Below are positions 44,305 through 49,793 of a stretch of 64,000 nt of DNA, in pieces. Source of the stretch: Vulcanimicrobiales bacterium (GTDB lineage Bacteria > Vulcanimicrobiota > Vulcanimicrobiia > Vulcanimicrobiales > Vulcanimicrobiaceae). The number at the start of each line of letters is the position of its first letter. The stretch's first letter is position 1. The DNA lies in the NCBI GenBank assembly GCA_038231455.1, contig JBBRLI010000002.1:64001-128000 (forward strand). The letters are read 5' to 3'. Below the pieces are notes generated by a model, which worked only from the letters and a program-made list of their open reading frames with translations, was not told where the DNA came from and did not search any database. A program made the position numbers and the translations under genes.

Positions 44305-45285
44305 ATGGTCGAAGAACGCAGTGAACCGAAAGTCGTCCTCTTGGTCCGCCTGCTAAGCGCGATCGATGAAGGCGTGTACGCGTTCGAAGAACTCAAAGTG
44401 CGTATCGCCGACGGAAAACCACCCTCGACGCGCAGCCTGCGCCGGTATCTTGCGGTACTCGCCGACGCCGGTTTTCCGTGGTATTTCGACCGCGCCGCGG
44501 GCACCTATCGTTTTTCAGACGGCTACAGCCTCAAGCGCCTGAACTTAAGCCAGCGCGAACTCTTCGGCCTCGTCACGCTCAAGCGACTAGGAACCTCGCT
44601 CGGCGGCACACTCGCAACCTACATCGACGAGGCGACGACCAAACTTCTGGGGTCGAGCGACCGCCGGACGAACGCCGGAATCGAATCCACGCCGTCCTTC
44701 ACGATCCGTCTCGATGAAGTCGCGCTCGATGCGACCGTCGAGCGCGTATTCGACACGCTGCAAACCGCCGAGCGGGCGCGCCGCCGCGTCAGTTTCGCCT
44801 ACGTCGACAAACGCGGCACGGCGAGCGACCGCCGCGTCGATCCATACGGATTTATCGTTTCATCCGGCCGCATCTACATGGTCGGCTACGACCACGGACG
44901 GAGCGACATGCGCGTCTTTGCCGTCGACAACATCAGCGACCCAAAAGTGCTTCCGGCAACCTACGAGAAACCGGCCGACTTCAACCTCGATGCCTTCGGC
45001 GTGAATTCCGTCAGCGGCGTGATCCAAACGGAATCCCTCGAGTCGATCACCGTCGCGTTTTCCGCAATCGTCGCAAAGGCCGCCGCAGCCTCCAACGTCG
45101 CGCGCGAACGCGAGGTCGTTCGACGCGCAGACGGATCGGTTGAGATCACGTACCGCGTCGGCGATCCACTCGAGATCGTGCGCTGGTCGATGGGCTGGGG
45201 AGCCGAAGCCGAAGTCGTCGCGCCCGCAAGCGCGCGAGACGCCGCACGCGAAATCGCGCAGCGTCTCGCCGCGCGTTACGGTTAG
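44305..45285 (+). CDS. HTH-WYL-WCX transcriptional regulator (PafB/C-like)
   Basis: N-terminal HTH (RSLRRYL..L..AGFP), R.VDPY, Y.VGYD..R...R.F.VD.I, W...WG..AEVV.P. Confidence 0.9.
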   Translation: MVEERSEPKVVLLVRLLSAIDEGVYAFEELKVRIADGKPPSTRSLRRYLAVLADAGFPWYFDRAAGTYRFSDGYSLKRLNLSQRELFGLVTLKRLGTSLGGTLATYIDEATTKLLGSSDRRTNAGIESTPSFTIRLDEVALDATVERVFDTLQTAERARRRVSFAYVDKRGTASDRRVDPYGFIVSSGRIYMVGYDHGRSDMRVFAVDNISDPKVLPATYEKPADFNLDAFGVNSVSGVIQTESLESITVAFSAIVAKAAAASNVAREREVVRRADGSVEITYRVGDPLEIVRWSMGWGAEAEVVAPASARDAAREIAQRLAARYG

Positions 45286-45551
45286 TCCCCACCCCACTGC
45301 CGCGCTTCGGGCGGAGCATAGTGCGCCTCGATGTCGTCCGGCGCGACGTCGCGTCCGATCGTCGATTTGATGATCGCAGCAATGTCCGCATCCGATTTCC
45401 CCGCCTCCCGGAACTGCTCGATCTCATCGCTGATCATCCCGACGAACGCAGGCAACGGAAAGCGTTCCGCATCCATGCCGAGGGAGCGACGAAGCTCCCG
45501 CTGAACGGCGACAGCCTCTTGAGCGGAAAAGGTCGAAGACTCTTCATGCAT
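45282..45551 (-). CDS. small hypothetical protein
   Basis: 89 aa with GGAGA RBS; divergent from marR. Confidence 0.7.
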   Translation of the reverse strand: MHEESSTFSAQEAVAVQRELRRSLGMDAERFPLPAFVGMISDEIEQFREAGKSDADIAAIIKSTIGRDVAPDDIEAHYAPPEARQWGGD

Positions 45552-45598
45552 CGTGATTTCTCCCAAACAGCGCGGCCGAGCGGGCCGTTAGCTGCATA

Positions 45599-46084
45599 AT
45601 GCAGGTTTCAGTGGAGGACGTCGTTCAGCAAGAAGCGCGGGCGTTCCTTGCGGCCTGGTTCGACACGCGCCGCATCATACAAACGTTCAATTTCAACCGC
45701 TTCCAACAAGAAGGCTTGAGCGCCACCCAGTTCATTCTCCTCAACATGATCGGTGAACAAAAAACCGGTGCAACGGCCGCCGACCTCGCGCGCCGCCTCA
45801 ACGTCGACGTCACGACAACGATGCGCACCGCCGAGAGCCTCGCAACGCGCGGGCTACTACGCAAAGCAAAAGACCCAGCCGACCGCCGACGCTCGTTCCT
45901 CACACTCACCGCCAAAGGCCGCAAACTCCACGCCCGAATCCACGAAGCATTCATCGATCAAATCGTAGCCGCATTCGGTGCAATGCCGGCGAGCGCGCGA
46001 ACCGGACTAATCGCGGGCCTGTCTGCGTTCGTGGAAGCCACGAACGCAGCAGACGTTCTCCTTATGAACAAGCGCCAAAGCTAA
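45599..46084 (+). CDS. MarR family transcriptional regulator
   Basis: GLS.TQF.LL, LA..L, L...GL, DP.DRR...L.LT.KG. Confidence 0.92.
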   Translation: MQVSVEDVVQQEARAFLAAWFDTRRIIQTFNFNRFQQEGLSATQFILLNMIGEQKTGATAADLARRLNVDVTTTMRTAESLATRGLLRKAKDPADRRRSFLTLTAKGRKLHARIHEAFIDQIVAAFGAMPASARTGLIAGLSAFVEATNAADVLLMNKRQS

Positions 46085-46151: not shown

Positions 46152-46189
46152 GAGTTCCGGGTGAGATGGCACCATCTCGCCCGGAACTC
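46152..46189 (+). terminator. long inverted repeat downstream of marR (probable terminator)
   Basis: GAGTTCCGGGTGAGATGG / CCATCTCGCCCGGAACTC, 18-nt arms with one G-U pair. Confidence 0.6.
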
Positions 46190-46208: not shown

Positions 46209-46252
46209 AAAAAAATAGCACAAACGCCCGGTGCGAAGGCACCGGGCGTTTG
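46209..46252 (-). terminator. intrinsic terminator of candidate ncRNA
   Basis: 14-bp perfect stem CAAACGCCCGGTGC/GCACCGGGCGTTTG followed by TGCTATTTTTTT on the minus strand. Confidence 0.8.
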
Positions 46253-46436
46253 AAAGCGCGAGATTCAGAGCTTTTCCCTTTCGAGTCTCCGAAGCGTTTC
46301 TGCGAAGCGTGTACCCCGCAAAACCGGTATCCGTGTCTCGATCGACATCGGCGTCCTTGGCACCACGTTCCTTCGAACTTTCGTTCTCTGGTCGGTGAGC
46401 CGCGAGCCTCGCAACTCGCCCGTCATTGCTGACGTG
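46212..46436 (-). ncRNA. candidate ~220-nt structured small RNA (family unassigned)
   Basis: Bounded by a consensus promoter and terminator; several GNRA-capped hairpins; no convincing ORF. Confidence 0.65.
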
Positions 46437-46441
46437 CCCCA

Positions 46442-46470
46442 ATAGTAGCAGGCCAAATTTCGGTTTGCAA
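46442..46470 (-). promoter_or_regulatory. sigma70-type promoter of candidate ncRNA
   Basis: TTGCAA(46470-46465)-17bp-TACTAT(46447-46442) with TG extension. Confidence 0.7.
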
Positions 46471-46538
46471 TGCCAAATGCGGGCGTTCCACAAGTCGTCC
46501 ACAAGAAAACGAACTTATTCGCAGAATTCCACAGCCTT

Positions 46539-47045
46539 ATGCACAAATTGACGGCTCTCTTGATGTTCGCACTGCTCGTTTTGGGTGTCCCGGCAAGCGC
46601 CCAAGGGGTTCCACAAGGCGCTCCGGTCGACGGCATTCCCTGTGATACAGCAGAGGGCGCGTTGCTCCACTTCCACCCGCATGTGTCGATCAGCGATCAT
46701 GGCAAGCCGGTCGTTATTCCGGAAGACGTCGGCCGTCCGCTGGCCACGCCGTGTTTATACTGGATCCACACACATACGCCGGACGGAATCGTCCACATTG
46801 AATCGCCCCGGTACCGGACGTTCAAGCTTGGGGAGTTTTTCGATATTTGGGCGCAGCCGCTATCGCGGTCAAACATTGCCGGCGTGAAGGTGCGTAAAGG
46901 TGAGAAAGTGATGGTTTGGGTGGCCGGCCGGTTGTATTCCGGTGATTTACGGAAGATCGAGCTTGCCCAGCACCTGGATATCGACATTGCCGTTGGCCCT
47001 CCGTATATGAAGCCCCGCGCTTTTACGGCCTGGAACGGCAACTGA
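46539..47045 (+). CDS. secreted His/Cys-rich hypothetical protein
   Basis: Signal peptide; DGIPC, HFHPH, CLYWIHTH..DG..HIE motifs. Confidence 0.8.
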   Translation: MHKLTALLMFALLVLGVPASAQGVPQGAPVDGIPCDTAEGALLHFHPHVSISDHGKPVVIPEDVGRPLATPCLYWIHTHTPDGIVHIESPRYRTFKLGEFFDIWAQPLSRSNIAGVKVRKGEKVMVWVAGRLYSGDLRKIELAQHLDIDIAVGPPYMKPRAFTAWNGN

Positions 47046-47135: not shown

Positions 47136-47987
47136 ATGTCGACGACAAACGCTACGCGCCAAATTTTTACCCTGCTTCAGGACCAGCGCGAGCGTATTTT
47201 TCCGCGCTGGATCGAAGCGGTCGGGGCGCGTTCGCGCGGGCGTCGCAGTTCGGCGGAAACGCAGGTCGAACTCCGGCCGATCTTCGACGCGCTCGTGGCG
47301 GGCGTGTCGGGCGGCGGCGTCAACGTCGACAATCCGGCATATGATGAGTTGCGCGCGATTCTTGCGGAATATTCGCGGGCACGCGCCCGTCAGGGTTTTA
47401 CGCCTTCGGAGACGGCGTTTGCCATCTTCGCACTTCGCGAAGCCGCACTCGATACGATTCATGACGCGAGCGGCAGCCTCGACTATGCGGACACCGCGGC
47501 GTTCTCGAAACTCGTCGATGGTCTGGGACTCATCACGTTCGAAGCCTTCGCGCTTGCGCGCGAAACGGTCATCGTCAACCAGAACGAACAACTGCTCGAA
47601 CTCTCGACGCCGGTGATCAAGCTTTGGGATGGGATCCTCGCGGTGCCGCTTGTGGGGACGCTCGACTCGGCCCGCACGCAAGTGGTGATGGAGGGTCTTT
47701 TGCAAGCGCTGGTCGACACCGGCAGTTCGCATGCCATCATCGATATCACCGGTGTTCCCGCCGTCGACACGCAAGTCGCGCAGCATTTGCTCAAGACGGT
47801 TGTTGCCGCGCGGCTCATGGGCGCGGAGTGTGTCATTTCGGGGATCCGGCCGCAGATCGCGCAGACGATCGTCGACCTTGGGATCGAATTCGGAGACATT
47901 CCGACCAAAGCCAATCTCGCTGACGCGCTGAAGCTTGCGTTTGCGCGCGCTGGTCTGCACGTGCGTAAGCTGGGCCTGAACGCGTGA
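47136..47987 (+). CDS. rsbR: stressosome scaffold RsbR (N-terminal RsbRD-like domain + STAS)
   Basis: QGFTPSETA, ELSTPV..LW.G.L..PL.GTLDS.R, IDITGV..VDT.VA. Confidence 0.92.
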   Translation: MSTTNATRQIFTLLQDQRERIFPRWIEAVGARSRGRRSSAETQVELRPIFDALVAGVSGGGVNVDNPAYDELRAILAEYSRARARQGFTPSETAFAIFALREAALDTIHDASGSLDYADTAAFSKLVDGLGLITFEAFALARETVIVNQNEQLLELSTPVIKLWDGILAVPLVGTLDSARTQVVMEGLLQALVDTGSSHAIIDITGVPAVDTQVAQHLLKTVVAARLMGAECVISGIRPQIAQTIVDLGIEFGDIPTKANLADALKLAFARAGLHVRKLGLNA

Positions 47988-48385
47988 GCGAGCGTATCCC
48001 GGTCGTCAAAATCGGCCGGGTGCTGATTGCGTCGATTCCAAGCGATCTTGGGGACGATACCGCGCTCCTCTTGCAAGAAGATCTCTCGAAACAAATCGTC
48101 GAGCACGCCGCAAGCGGTGTCATTATCGATATTTCGGCGCTCGATATCGTCGACACGTTCATCGGCCGCATGCTGGCGCGGCTCGCGTCGATTTCGCGCG
48201 TCCTCGATGCGTTGACGATCGTCGTGGGAATGCGACCAGCAGTCGCGATCACCCTGACGGAACTCGGGCTCACGCTTGGCGGTGTGCGCACCGCGATCAA
48301 CAGCGATCGCGCGTTCGAGATTCTGCAATCACTCGACGTCCGGGAAGAAGACGATCTCGCGGATCTCGCCGACCACGTTTCGTGA
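47984..48385 (+). CDS. rsbS: stressosome STAS protein RsbS
   Basis: IDISALDIVDTF, GMRPAVAITLTELG. Confidence 0.92.
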   Translation: MSERIPVVKIGRVLIASIPSDLGDDTALLLQEDLSKQIVEHAASGVIIDISALDIVDTFIGRMLARLASISRVLDALTIVVGMRPAVAITLTELGLTLGGVRTAINSDRAFEILQSLDVREEDDLADLADHVS

Positions 48386-48789
48386 GTGCGGATAGCGACG
48401 GCGAGCGCGTCGATATCTCGACCGACGCGGACGTCGTACGGGTGCGACAGGCCGTCCGCGCGTTTGCGCTGCGGGCCGCGCTCTCGATCGTCGATCAAAC
48501 GAAAATCATCACCGCGGCAAGCGAACTCGCGCGCAACGCCCTTGTCCACGGCGGTGGCGGATTTGCTCGCATCGCCTTAATCGAAGAAAACGGACGCGTC
48601 GGCGTCCGCGCCGCCTTCGAAGATTCTGGCCCGGGAATCGTCGATCTGGAGCGGGCTCTTGTGGGCGGCATCAGCACGGCCGGCGGCCTTGGACTCGGCT
48701 TGTCCGGCAGTCGCCGACTCGTCGATCTCTTTGCGCTTGACTCCGATTCGCGCGGGACGCGCGTCACGGTGACTAAGTGGAAACGCTGA
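48382..48789 (+). CDS. rsbT: RsbT serine/threonine kinase
   Basis: QTKIITAASELARN, D.GPGI, GLGLGL.G..RLVD.F. Confidence 0.92.
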   Translation: MSADSDGERVDISTDADVVRVRQAVRAFALRAALSIVDQTKIITAASELARNALVHGGGGFARIALIEENGRVGVRAAFEDSGPGIVDLERALVGGISTAGGLGLGLSGSRRLVDLFALDSDSRGTRVTVTKWKR

Positions 48790-49793
48790 GCCGTGTCGAG
48801 GACGTGTCGTGGTTTCGCGTCGAGGATTCAAGCGCGCCGGGAGCGGTGCGGCGCGCGGCCGTTACGCTTGCCGCGCGACTCGGATACAGCGAGCACCGCA
48901 CGGGAGAAGTGGCGATCGCCGCAACGGAACTTGCGACGAATTTGCATCGACACGCCATCGAAGGGACGATCGTGCTCCGAATTCGGCGCGACACGTTCGC
49001 TGCCGCAATCGAATTGCTCGCGATCGATGGCGGCCCCGGCATCGCCGATCTCTCGGTGTTCGCGCGCGACGGAAAATCAAGCGCCGGGTCGCTCGGCATT
49101 GGCCTTGGCGCTGCGATGCGCCTTGCAACGTGGTTCGATGCCTATTCGCTCCTCGGACGCGGGACGGTCATGATCGCGACCTTTTGGCCGGACGAGCGCA
49201 GCCATATCGGCACGAACATCGCCGGGTTGACCCGCGCAATGATCGATACGGAACCCTGCGGCGATGCGATCGCGCATCGCGAGAGTCCCGAGGTGACGAC
49301 CGTGTTGCTAGCAGATGGACTCGGACACGGAGAACTCGCTGCGGTCGCCTCCCGCGCAGCGGTTCGGGCGTTTGCAATCGATGAGGAGCCGCAGCGCGAT
49401 CCGGTGGCGACGTTACACCTGTTGCACCCCGCCCTCAAGACCACGCGCGGAGCGGCAGTGGGCATCCTGCGGCTCGATTGGGGAAAGCGAGCGATCACCT
49501 TCGCCGGCGTCGGGAATATCGAGGGTTGGGTCGATGATGGCGAGCGGCGTCGATCGCTTGCCTCGACACCCGGCATCATCGGCAGCAACACGCGGAAGAT
49601 CCGAGAATATACGCTCCCGATGCCAACCGCCGGACTCGTCATTCTTCACACGGACGGGTTGACGGGCAAGTGGAATTTGGACGATTATCCCGGGCTGCGC
49701 GGACGCGACCCGCATCTCGTCGCTGCGACGCTGATGCGCGATGCCGGTATCCGAGCGGACGACCGCGGCATCGTTGTCGTGAAGGTCGCATGA
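48777..49793 (+). CDS. HATPase-PP2C fusion (RsbX-like phosphatase)
   Basis: ELATNL..H, D.GPG, G.LG.GLG; CGD, ADGLGHG, HTDG, DD. Confidence 0.85.
   Translation: METLSRVEDVSWFRVEDSSAPGAVRRAAVTLAARLGYSEHRTGEVAIAATELATNLHRHAIEGTIVLRIRRDTFAAAIELLAIDGGPGIADLSVFARDGKSSAGSLGIGLGAAMRLATWFDAYSLLGRGTVMIATFWPDERSHIGTNIAGLTRAMIDTEPCGDAIAHRESPEVTTVLLADGLGHGELAAVASRAAVRAFAIDEEPQRDPVATLHLLHPALKTTRGAAVGILRLDWGKRAITFAGVGNIEGWVDDGERRRSLASTPGIIGSNTRKIREYTLPMPTAGLVILHTDGLTGKWNLDDYPGLRGRDPHLVAATLMRDAGIRADDRGIVVVKVA

Follow-up and report, generated by a model that had tools for sequence, protein, structure and literature searches.

A candidate order-restricted family of structured small RNA genes in Vulcanimicrobiota, preceded by a conserved array of DnaA-box-like 9-mers

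We describe a gene for a structured small RNA (sRNA) on the minus strand of a 64,000-nucleotide (nt) stretch of DNA from a Vulcanimicrobiales bacterium (GenBank assembly GCA_038231455.1, contig JBBRLI010000002.1, forward-strand positions 64,001 to 128,000); this whole stretch is called the window below, and coordinates count from its first letter. Our overall reading, to which we assign a probability of roughly 0.6, is that the locus holds a real sRNA gene of an undescribed, order-restricted family, and that an array of 9-mers upstream of its promoter is probably read by the replication initiator DnaA. The parts of this reading differ in firmness. We have little doubt that the locus in the source genome (G000) is a genuine stand-alone gene for a small structured RNA and that the family to which it belongs is real; that the array binds DnaA is, from the sequence comparisons described here, about an even bet. 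A preliminary description of the window had proposed an unannotated, structured non-coding RNA of a new family with its own transcription signals, and this proposal is borne out by the folding z-score, the conservation and the absence of an Rfam match reported below. The conserved upstream box array and the synteny go beyond what that description had observed.

Results

The RNA gene and its transcription signals

The transcription unit consists of the following elements.

46210..46435, minus strand: inferred sRNA transcript, about 225 nt, its start taken from a conserved A and its 3' end lying in the T-run past the terminator
46465..46470, minus strand: -35 hexamer TTGCAA, with TTG invariant in a 6-row alignment and the consensus cTTGc in 44 rows
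46442..46447, minus strand: -10 hexamer TACTAT, separated from the -35 by a 17-nt spacer; consensus tA..aT in 44 copies
46209..46252, minus strand: intrinsic terminator, a 14-pair stem (46252-46221, 10 G-C pairs) followed by TGCTA and a seven-T run (46215-46209)

A consensus promoter scan returned no site at the locus, TTGCAA and TACTAT both falling below its threshold. The promoter, predicted to be of sigma-70 type, is judged real because it is conserved among homologous copies of the locus, in 44 of which the TTG of the -35, a TAnnAT at the -10 and a downstream A are kept. This A is located 7 nt 3' of the -10 in 44/44 copies, and because of this invariance, and because the first hairpin begins directly after it, we place the transcription start at 46435, the A of CACG. 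If so, the GGGGC that had been counted as the 5' part of an RNA of about 220 nt is probably not transcribed and lies outside the RNA. The other elements named in the preliminary description were all found in place: the promoter TTGCAA-17-TACTAT at 46470-46465 and 46447-46442 of the minus strand, the four hairpins (including GAAC-GAAA-GTTC and CTC-GAAA-GGG), three TTCG motifs, and the 14-bp terminator at 46252-46221 with its U-tract.

A strong hairpin equivalent to the terminator is present in 35/44 copies, and the terminator stem has accumulated many compensatory changes among 18 RNAs of one sub-clade (clade I). Some 30 nt beyond the sRNA terminator, at 46152-46189, a second strong hairpin (GAGTTCCGGG...CCCGGAACTC) can be read on both strands; it is partly retained in G001, a genome of the same genus, and the synteny between G000 and G001 ends just past it. 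This hairpin may be the terminator of a converging MarR gene or a back-up terminator. Around the -35 element, the motif TTTGGC occurs twice, 20 nt apart (46453-46479, minus strand), at the same place as in relatives, and T-rich, GG-bearing stretches occupy both positions in many copies; the pair may be a second regulatory site. ARAGORN run over the whole window reported no tRNA and no tmRNA.

Fold and covariation

The 232-nt stretch folds to a minimum free energy (MFE) of -99.5 kcal/mol, compared with -80.3 +/- 5.0 kcal/mol in 200 dinucleotide shuffles (z = -3.84), none of which (0/200) was as good. The MFE and centroid folds of the G000 RNA both consist of a row of about five separate hairpins.

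46421..46434, minus strand: hairpin H1, CGTCA-GCAA-TGACG, 5 pairs with a GCAA loop, beginning at +2; covariation over 44 copies
46402..46419, minus strand: hairpin H2, GCGAGTT-GCGA-GGCTCGC, 7 pairs with a GCGA loop; covariation over 44 copies
46359..46401, minus strand: long imperfect hairpin H3, capped by GAAC-GAAA-GTTC; MFE fold
46258..46356, minus strand: three more predicted hairpins, then single-stranded AAUCUCGCGCUUUC; MFE fold, with pair-preserving substitutions in G001

The G001 locus is 88% identical to that of G000. Nine substitutions between the two fall in predicted pairs and all of them preserve pairing, seven pairs being changed on one side, one on both sides and 0/71 broken. About 40 nt within 46258..46356 are specific to the genus, being an insertion in G000 and G001 relative to the other clade-I RNAs.

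Over wider distances, covariation was counted in 44 copies out of 29 published loci, and H1 and H2 do covary in this set, homologue collection and covariation having been named in the preliminary description as a check. Across the nine modelled pairs of the two hairpins, 96.4% of cells are paired, compared with 81.6% in shuffled alignments and 31-59% when the partners are slid, and cells with both sides changed number 58 compared with 17.6 in shuffles. One pair of H1, for example, is GC in 23 copies and UA in 20. The four modelled outer pairs of H2 are 100% paired, three of the four showing two-sided changes, and its inner pairs covary by eye. When the 42 distinct 5' modules were folded individually, nearly all gave the same two hairpins from stems of differing sequence. 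Further 3', the apical stem of H3 shows many compensatory changes in the 18 clade-I RNAs.

Whole RNAs could be compared for the 35 of 44 copies with a placeable terminator; nine were dropped, seven for lack of a strong hairpin within 300 nt and two from incomplete loci. These 35 family RNAs are 135-229 nt long and typically form five hairpins, their median MFE z-score is -4.04, and 34/35 lie below -2. Their hairpin loops are of GNRA type in 66/178 cases, as opposed to 67/3000 in shuffles, a 17-fold enrichment.

Two open reading frames (ORFs) of 104 and 123 amino acids (aa) overlap the region, and none of three ORFs overlapping the sRNA has a Pfam match. The three codon positions carry 11/9/8 of the substitutions between G000 and G001; a stop in G001 interrupts the frame open in G000, and the frame open in G001 is likewise stopped in G000. 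With ORFs not conserved even within the genus, the region appears to be non-coding, and a conserved small ORF, which would have explained the locus otherwise, was not found.

Family and distribution

No model of Rfam 15 reached its gathering score anywhere in the window, so the novelty of the RNA stands. Near the locus, the search at E<=10 gave just two matches, at E 5.3 and 8.7, both to the terminator only, and a search of twelve homologous loci (36,244 nt) at E<=1 gave three chance-level matches only, at E 0.1-0.48.

A BLAST search with a 262-nt query is too insensitive to detect the family and found matches in 2/41 genomes, G000 and G001 themselves. A full-length covariance model built from two sequences (R1) matched 16/151 genomes at E<=0.1, most of them weakly. 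Among these, genome G053 has two tandem copies (37.1 and 29.3 bits), and in G107 a weak match (21.7 bits) is genuine by synteny, with tandem copies present; the copies of both genomes adjoin homologues of the same two neighbour genes as in G000. The R1 match in G012 (28.6 bits) was rejected as a false positive: box and promoter are absent there and the sequence is coding-like. The exact pattern of the 5' module occurs in G000, G001 and G053 only, among 100 loci.

A second model (R2), comprising the upstream box, the promoter and the first two hairpins, matched 107/151 genomes and 60/78 genera of the same family, Vulcanimicrobiaceae; this tally includes five unpublished genomes (G045, G149, G058, G020 and G009), all of which match, and excluding them it is 102/146 genomes; none of the other claims made here depends on these five. 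In a sample of the phylum, R2 matched 54/71 genomes of the family, 1/1 of the sister family and 0/78 genomes from 19 other families, with the proviso that the model contains the promoter, so that an RNA behind a different promoter elsewhere would escape it. All five sister-family genomes searched (5/5) have a match. On these sequence comparisons the sRNA family is undescribed and confined, within the groups searched, to one order of Vulcanimicrobiota (Eremiobacterota). Five high-quality genomes of the family gave no R2 match even beside the WYL regulator gene that usually adjoins the sRNA (see below), with filters off and a best score of 8.2 bits.

The source genome has a single copy. Many other genomes carry 2-4 tandem copies spaced 300-560 nt apart, every copy having a box array, a promoter and a terminator to itself, and one genus of large genomes has up to four tandem units.

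The upstream 9-mer array

Upstream of the promoter of each copy lies an array of 9-mers in the same orientation and in 10-11-nt phase, extending from about -47 to -120, the consensus of which, when reverse-complemented, gives the DnaA box TTATNCACA. In the window it comprises the following.

46495..46503, minus strand: main box TGTGGACGA, which on the plus strand reads as a DnaA-box-like 9-mer
46504..46508, minus strand: TTTCT, directly 5' of the main box, with high information content in the fixed-register columns
46484..46492, minus strand: second box TGTGGAACG, 2 bp past the main box, giving an 11-nt period
46515..46523, minus strand: box TGCGAATAA, 20 nt upstream of the main box, seen in the fixed-register columns
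46525..46545, minus strand: outer, weaker boxes TGTGGAATT (46533-46525) and TGTGCATAA (46545-46537), in the weakly conserved -30 and -40 registers

Boxes were counted in 95 nt of each of 42 promoters, allowing <=2 mismatches to the consensus. There were 96 in the forward orientation (2.3 per promoter) and 1 in the reverse, whereas shuffled sequences gave 0.14 per promoter and the RNA bodies 2. The spacings between boxes peak at 11, 20 and 30 nt, 11 being the commonest short spacing. As such a count presupposes the consensus, columns at fixed register were examined in addition. The columns of the main box read TGTGGAnAn, with TGTGGA in 41-42/42 copies in fixed register, and those of the box at -20 read y-G-y-G-n-A-T-A-A (G 42/42, G 42/42, A 38/42, A 42/42 and A 40/42 at its conserved positions); the variable position of the -20 consensus coincides with the N of the DnaA box. 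The slot between these two boxes is not box-like.

The published DnaA-box consensus is TTATCCACA, as given in the available text of PMC11317965, according to which E. coli DnaA favours paired boxes with 2-3 bp between them. In G000 the main and second boxes, in the same orientation and 2 bp apart, are within this double-box spacing.

Within the source genome the array stands out. At least three DnaA-like boxes (<=1 mismatch) within 300 nt occur at two places only, upstream of dnaA and at the sRNA locus, and four TGTGGA within 150 nt are found at the sRNA locus only. The region upstream of dnaA (contig C4, 201513-201690) has five boxes with <=1 mismatch, one of them a perfect TTATCCACA and two of them forming a pair in the same orientation separated by 3 bp, and is likely the dnaA promoter or origin region. 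The main box is one of 3 exact TTTCTTGTGGA sites in the G000 genome, and TTTCTTGTGGA at a fixed distance 5' of the -35 is common to the homologous copies. The other two exact sites are at C5:36519 and C4:24156, the former of which falls within the last part of a coding region and was judged to be there by chance. Exact TTATNCACA is rare in two complete genomes from other genera, occurring 8 times (G075) and 12 times (G060), with one site in the sRNA promoter of each and others beside dnaA. In a third complete genome, G041, exact TTATCCACA sites form eight pairs on contig C1, always with a spacing of exactly 1,455 nt, which suggests a repeated mobile element with two such sites.

The gene neighbourhood

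46539..47045, plus strand: sec169, a predicted secreted protein of 168 aa from the ORF list, the divergent neighbour of the sRNA
44305..45285, plus strand: WYL/WCX transcription regulator (Pfam WYL 2.1e-19, WCX 4.3e-13)

The usual layout of the locus is a WYL gene, the sRNA converging with it, the array and the divergent sec169 gene, and the outermost box of the G000 array, TGTGCATAA, overlaps the ATG of sec169. The WYL gene is the most constant neighbour, being found beside the sRNA in 25/29 family loci and 5/5 sister-family loci (30/34 together); the closest solved relatives of its product are WYL regulators and PafBC. A sec169 homologue lies within the 3.1-kb locus in 25/29 family loci and in 1/5 of the sister family. 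The sec169 protein has no match in Pfam, NCBIfam or PDB and has conserved His-rich motifs, HFHPH and WIHTH. Its relatives are spread much more widely than the sRNA, occurring in metagenome-assembled genomes labelled Vulcanimicrobiota, Gemmatimonadota, Acidobacteria-like, Rhodospirillales, Dormiibacterota and Chloroflexota, and also in Ferroacidibacillus.

The five high-quality genomes that are without the sRNA keep the WYL gene, with sec169 directly downstream in three of them, and have no box array. Because these RNA-less genomes retain the regulator gene and no array, the array belongs to the sRNA unit, which has been added to a WYL operon of greater age. In 2,956 nt of sequence upstream of WYL genes there was 1 weak box match.

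In G000 the space between the WYL gene and the sRNA holds an insertion (45282-46084) with a plus-strand MarR-family gene and a minus-strand ORF of 94 aa that belongs to no family; G001 and most relatives are without it. On the other side, the plus strand at 47136-49793 carries a stressosome-like row, in which an RsbR-type protein (RsbRD_N plus STAS) is followed by ORFs of 133, 135 and 338 aa that look like RsbS-, RsbT- and phosphatase-like proteins.

The dnaA gene of G000 is on a different contig from the sRNA, and in five complete genomes the sRNA locus lies at 56-79% of the replichore from dnaA, with genome sizes rounded in this estimate. On both of these grounds we rejected the possibility that the array is part of oriC.

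Discussion

Several observations weigh against reading the locus as an sRNA gene of a single family under the probable control of DnaA. On the side of the RNA, the promoter hexamers of G000 agree with the consensus at 8/12 positions, which is a weak match; the covariation counts for H1 and H2 come from a model-fitted alignment of related copies and are biased towards structure; and the RNA bodies split into two sub-clades that share little outside the 5' module, so that the claim of a single family rests on the promoter, the 5' module and the synteny. Furthermore, 44/151 genomes of the family have no R2 match, and since five high-quality genomes do without the RNA, it is dispensable. On the side of DnaA, the TTTCT beside the main box is conserved as strongly as the box itself and yet lies outside the DnaA-box consensus, while the first three DnaA-box positions of the main box vary, being TCG in G000 and CCG in G001. 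Of the three boxes that make up the cluster at the G000 locus, two extend into the neighbouring gene, one of them over its start codon and the other within the coding sequence. Genome totals of exact TTATNCACA are no higher than those of a backwards-pattern control, and G041 is without an exact box at its three sRNA copies. Finally, the second box directly repeats the main one at a period of 11 nt, and direct repeats in 10-11-nt phase suit regulators of the OmpR/PhoB type.

These last points lead to the alternative that deserves the closest attention: the RNA gene would be real, but the array would be bound by another protein, either a response regulator of the OmpR/PhoB type or the neighbouring WYL regulator. 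We consider this possible, though unlikely. Besides the repeat phase and TTTCT, it can draw on the WYL gene being adjacent in 30/34 loci, genes for regulators often adjoining the sRNA under their control. For a response regulator, however, the two strongest boxes would be oddly placed, 20 nt apart with an intervening slot that is not box-like, and the 9-mer consensus fits the DnaA box at each position, including the variable fifth. As for the WYL protein, the WYL regulators solved so far are dimers, which bind symmetric or single sites and are not known to bind rows of direct repeats, its own genes have next to nothing of the array upstream (the single weak box mentioned above), and they persist where array and RNA are both missing.

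Let us suppose, instead, that DnaA does bind but that the locus is mainly a DNA element, a cluster that titrates or modulates DnaA, the RNA being secondary and its transcription serving, for example, to clear or tune DnaA occupancy. The cluster is the sole DnaA-like one of G000 besides the region upstream of dnaA, its units are multiplied in tandem up to fourfold in one large-genome genus, and its position at 56-79% of the replichore in the five complete genomes is not that of an origin. B. subtilis is known to have clusters away from oriC that DnaA binds stably (PMC2533591). Against this scenario, the RNA itself is under selection, as seen in its covarying hairpins, its GNRA enrichment and the conservation of its start nucleotide and terminator, features that a by-product transcript would lose. 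We therefore regard it as improbable.

The remaining alternatives concern the nature of the RNA and survive less well. A 6S- or Ms1-like RNA that binds RNA polymerase, one of the two identities offered in the preliminary description, would fit the size of about 200 nt and the strong structure, and the 6S gene of this genome is not firmly placed. But the locus gives no match to the 6S model (RF00013), whether the gathering score or E<=10 is applied, the RNA folds into some five successive hairpins and not into a long rod with a central bubble, and the sRNA is missing from 44/151 family genomes; this identity thus seems very unlikely. The only match to the 6S model in G000 is on another contig (C38:4065-4249), full length at 28.7 bits compared with a cut-off of 46.4, and is a candidate for a divergent 6S RNA.

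The other identity, a sponge for CsrA/RsmA, had been suggested by four ANGGA motifs, and these are indeed present in the G000 RNA; csrA, the presence of which was to be checked, is also found in the genome (PF02599, 84.3 bits, C58:3233-3385). The RNA also resembles RsmX/Y/Z in standing alone, in forming many hairpins, in having a conserved site upstream and in occurring in several copies. The motifs are not enriched, however: in the 35 family RNAs ANGGA occurs 29 times compared with 35 expected from shuffles, and GGA 115 times compared with 161. Only 8/115 of these GGA are fully unpaired in the MFE folds, and the conserved loops are GNRA or of CGAGA/CGUGA type and not GGA. With GGA depleted and mostly paired, the sponge hypothesis is hardly tenable. 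Scarcely better placed is a cis-regulatory leader, a riboswitch or a small protein-coding gene, for which compact GNRA-rich folds, typical of riboswitches, and the overlapping ORFs of 104 and 123 aa could be cited, since no same-strand gene follows (the next gene converges, MarR in G000 and WYL in most other loci), the tandem copies end in terminators of their own, and the ORFs are neither conserved within the genus nor matched in Pfam.

Returning to the reading that we favour, an sRNA gene with an array probably read by DnaA, we can outline how such a unit might work. DnaA would bind the 9-mer array and act as an upstream activator of the sRNA promoter, and the level of the sRNA would thereby report the state of the replication initiator. 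What the RNA does is a matter for more tentative proposals. A trans-acting role, in which it would bind a protein or serve as a regulatory RNA, is a possibility at most; the RNA would then be functionally linked to the WYL regulator, and the part recognised would be its twin-hairpin 5' module. The WYL-domain fold has been proposed to bind RNA, according to the available text of PMC6789036. The genome of G000 has hfq. A crude test of pairing between the sRNA and the start region of the divergent mRNA, made with duplexfold on 10 loci, gave no support (median z -1.4, 2/10 below -2). If the DnaA-binding cluster is true, synthesis of the sRNA would directly read out the initiator, and together with the WYL regulator it might constitute a replication or DNA-stress module, in which the RNA would feed back on initiation or serve as the nucleic-acid ligand or target of the WYL protein. 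This last extension is doubtful, and we offer it as a speculation.

The phylum Vulcanimicrobiota (Eremiobacterota, WPS-2) is widespread in soil, and there is hardly any experimental genetics for it; nearly all of its members are uncultured. Our literature search, with supplements outside its reach, found no work on non-coding RNA in this phylum and no report of an sRNA gene driven by a DnaA-box array. The sRNA is kept in most genera of the order, its promoter being more conserved than its body, and it is probably a central regulator there. If it is driven by DnaA, post-transcriptional control would be coupled, by way of an sRNA, to the replication initiator. The 9-mer array, the promoter and the twin hairpin would together form a compact, testable cis-element that could be used in heterologous assays.

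The unit can be compared with several known systems. RsmX, RsmY and RsmZ and also CsrB and CsrC have their own promoter and intrinsic terminator, an upstream activating site some 60-80 nt before the start and many hairpins, sometimes in several tandem or dispersed copies. The sRNA described here is alike in being a stand-alone gene with an upstream site, hairpins and tandem copies, but it is without the GGA motifs in loops that define those RNAs and has no Rfam match. With 6S and Ms1 RNA it shares size and a high degree of structure, and it differs from them by its row of hairpins in place of a rod with a bubble and by the lack of a model match. Large GNRA-rich 'ornate' bacterial RNAs, of which raiA is an example, have in common with it an independent unit and many GNRA-capped hairpins; the present family differs in being found in one order only, and its 12 loci gave no Rfam 15 match at E<=1 bar chance ones.

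On the regulatory side, CcnA of Caulobacter crescentus is a cell-cycle non-coding RNA tied to CtrA and GcrA (PMC8959179, available text). Its transcription is tied to a master regulator of cell cycle or replication, as that of the sRNA described here would be to DnaA. The regulators of CcnA, as far as that text goes, are CtrA and GcrA and not DnaA, there is no relation in sequence or structure between the two RNAs, and the sRNA described here is far from dnaA. The array itself is like the DnaA clusters and DnaA-regulated promoters of B. subtilis (sda, ywlC and yydA) and like the double boxes of E. coli, where, in the available text of PMC11317965 and PMC2533591, clustered 9-mers like TTATNCACA lie outside the origin before a promoter, with a pair 2 bp apart as found here. 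What sets the present case apart from the known DnaA-regulated promoters is that the predicted array precedes a structured sRNA, and that the whole unit is found order-wide and is tandemly multiplied.

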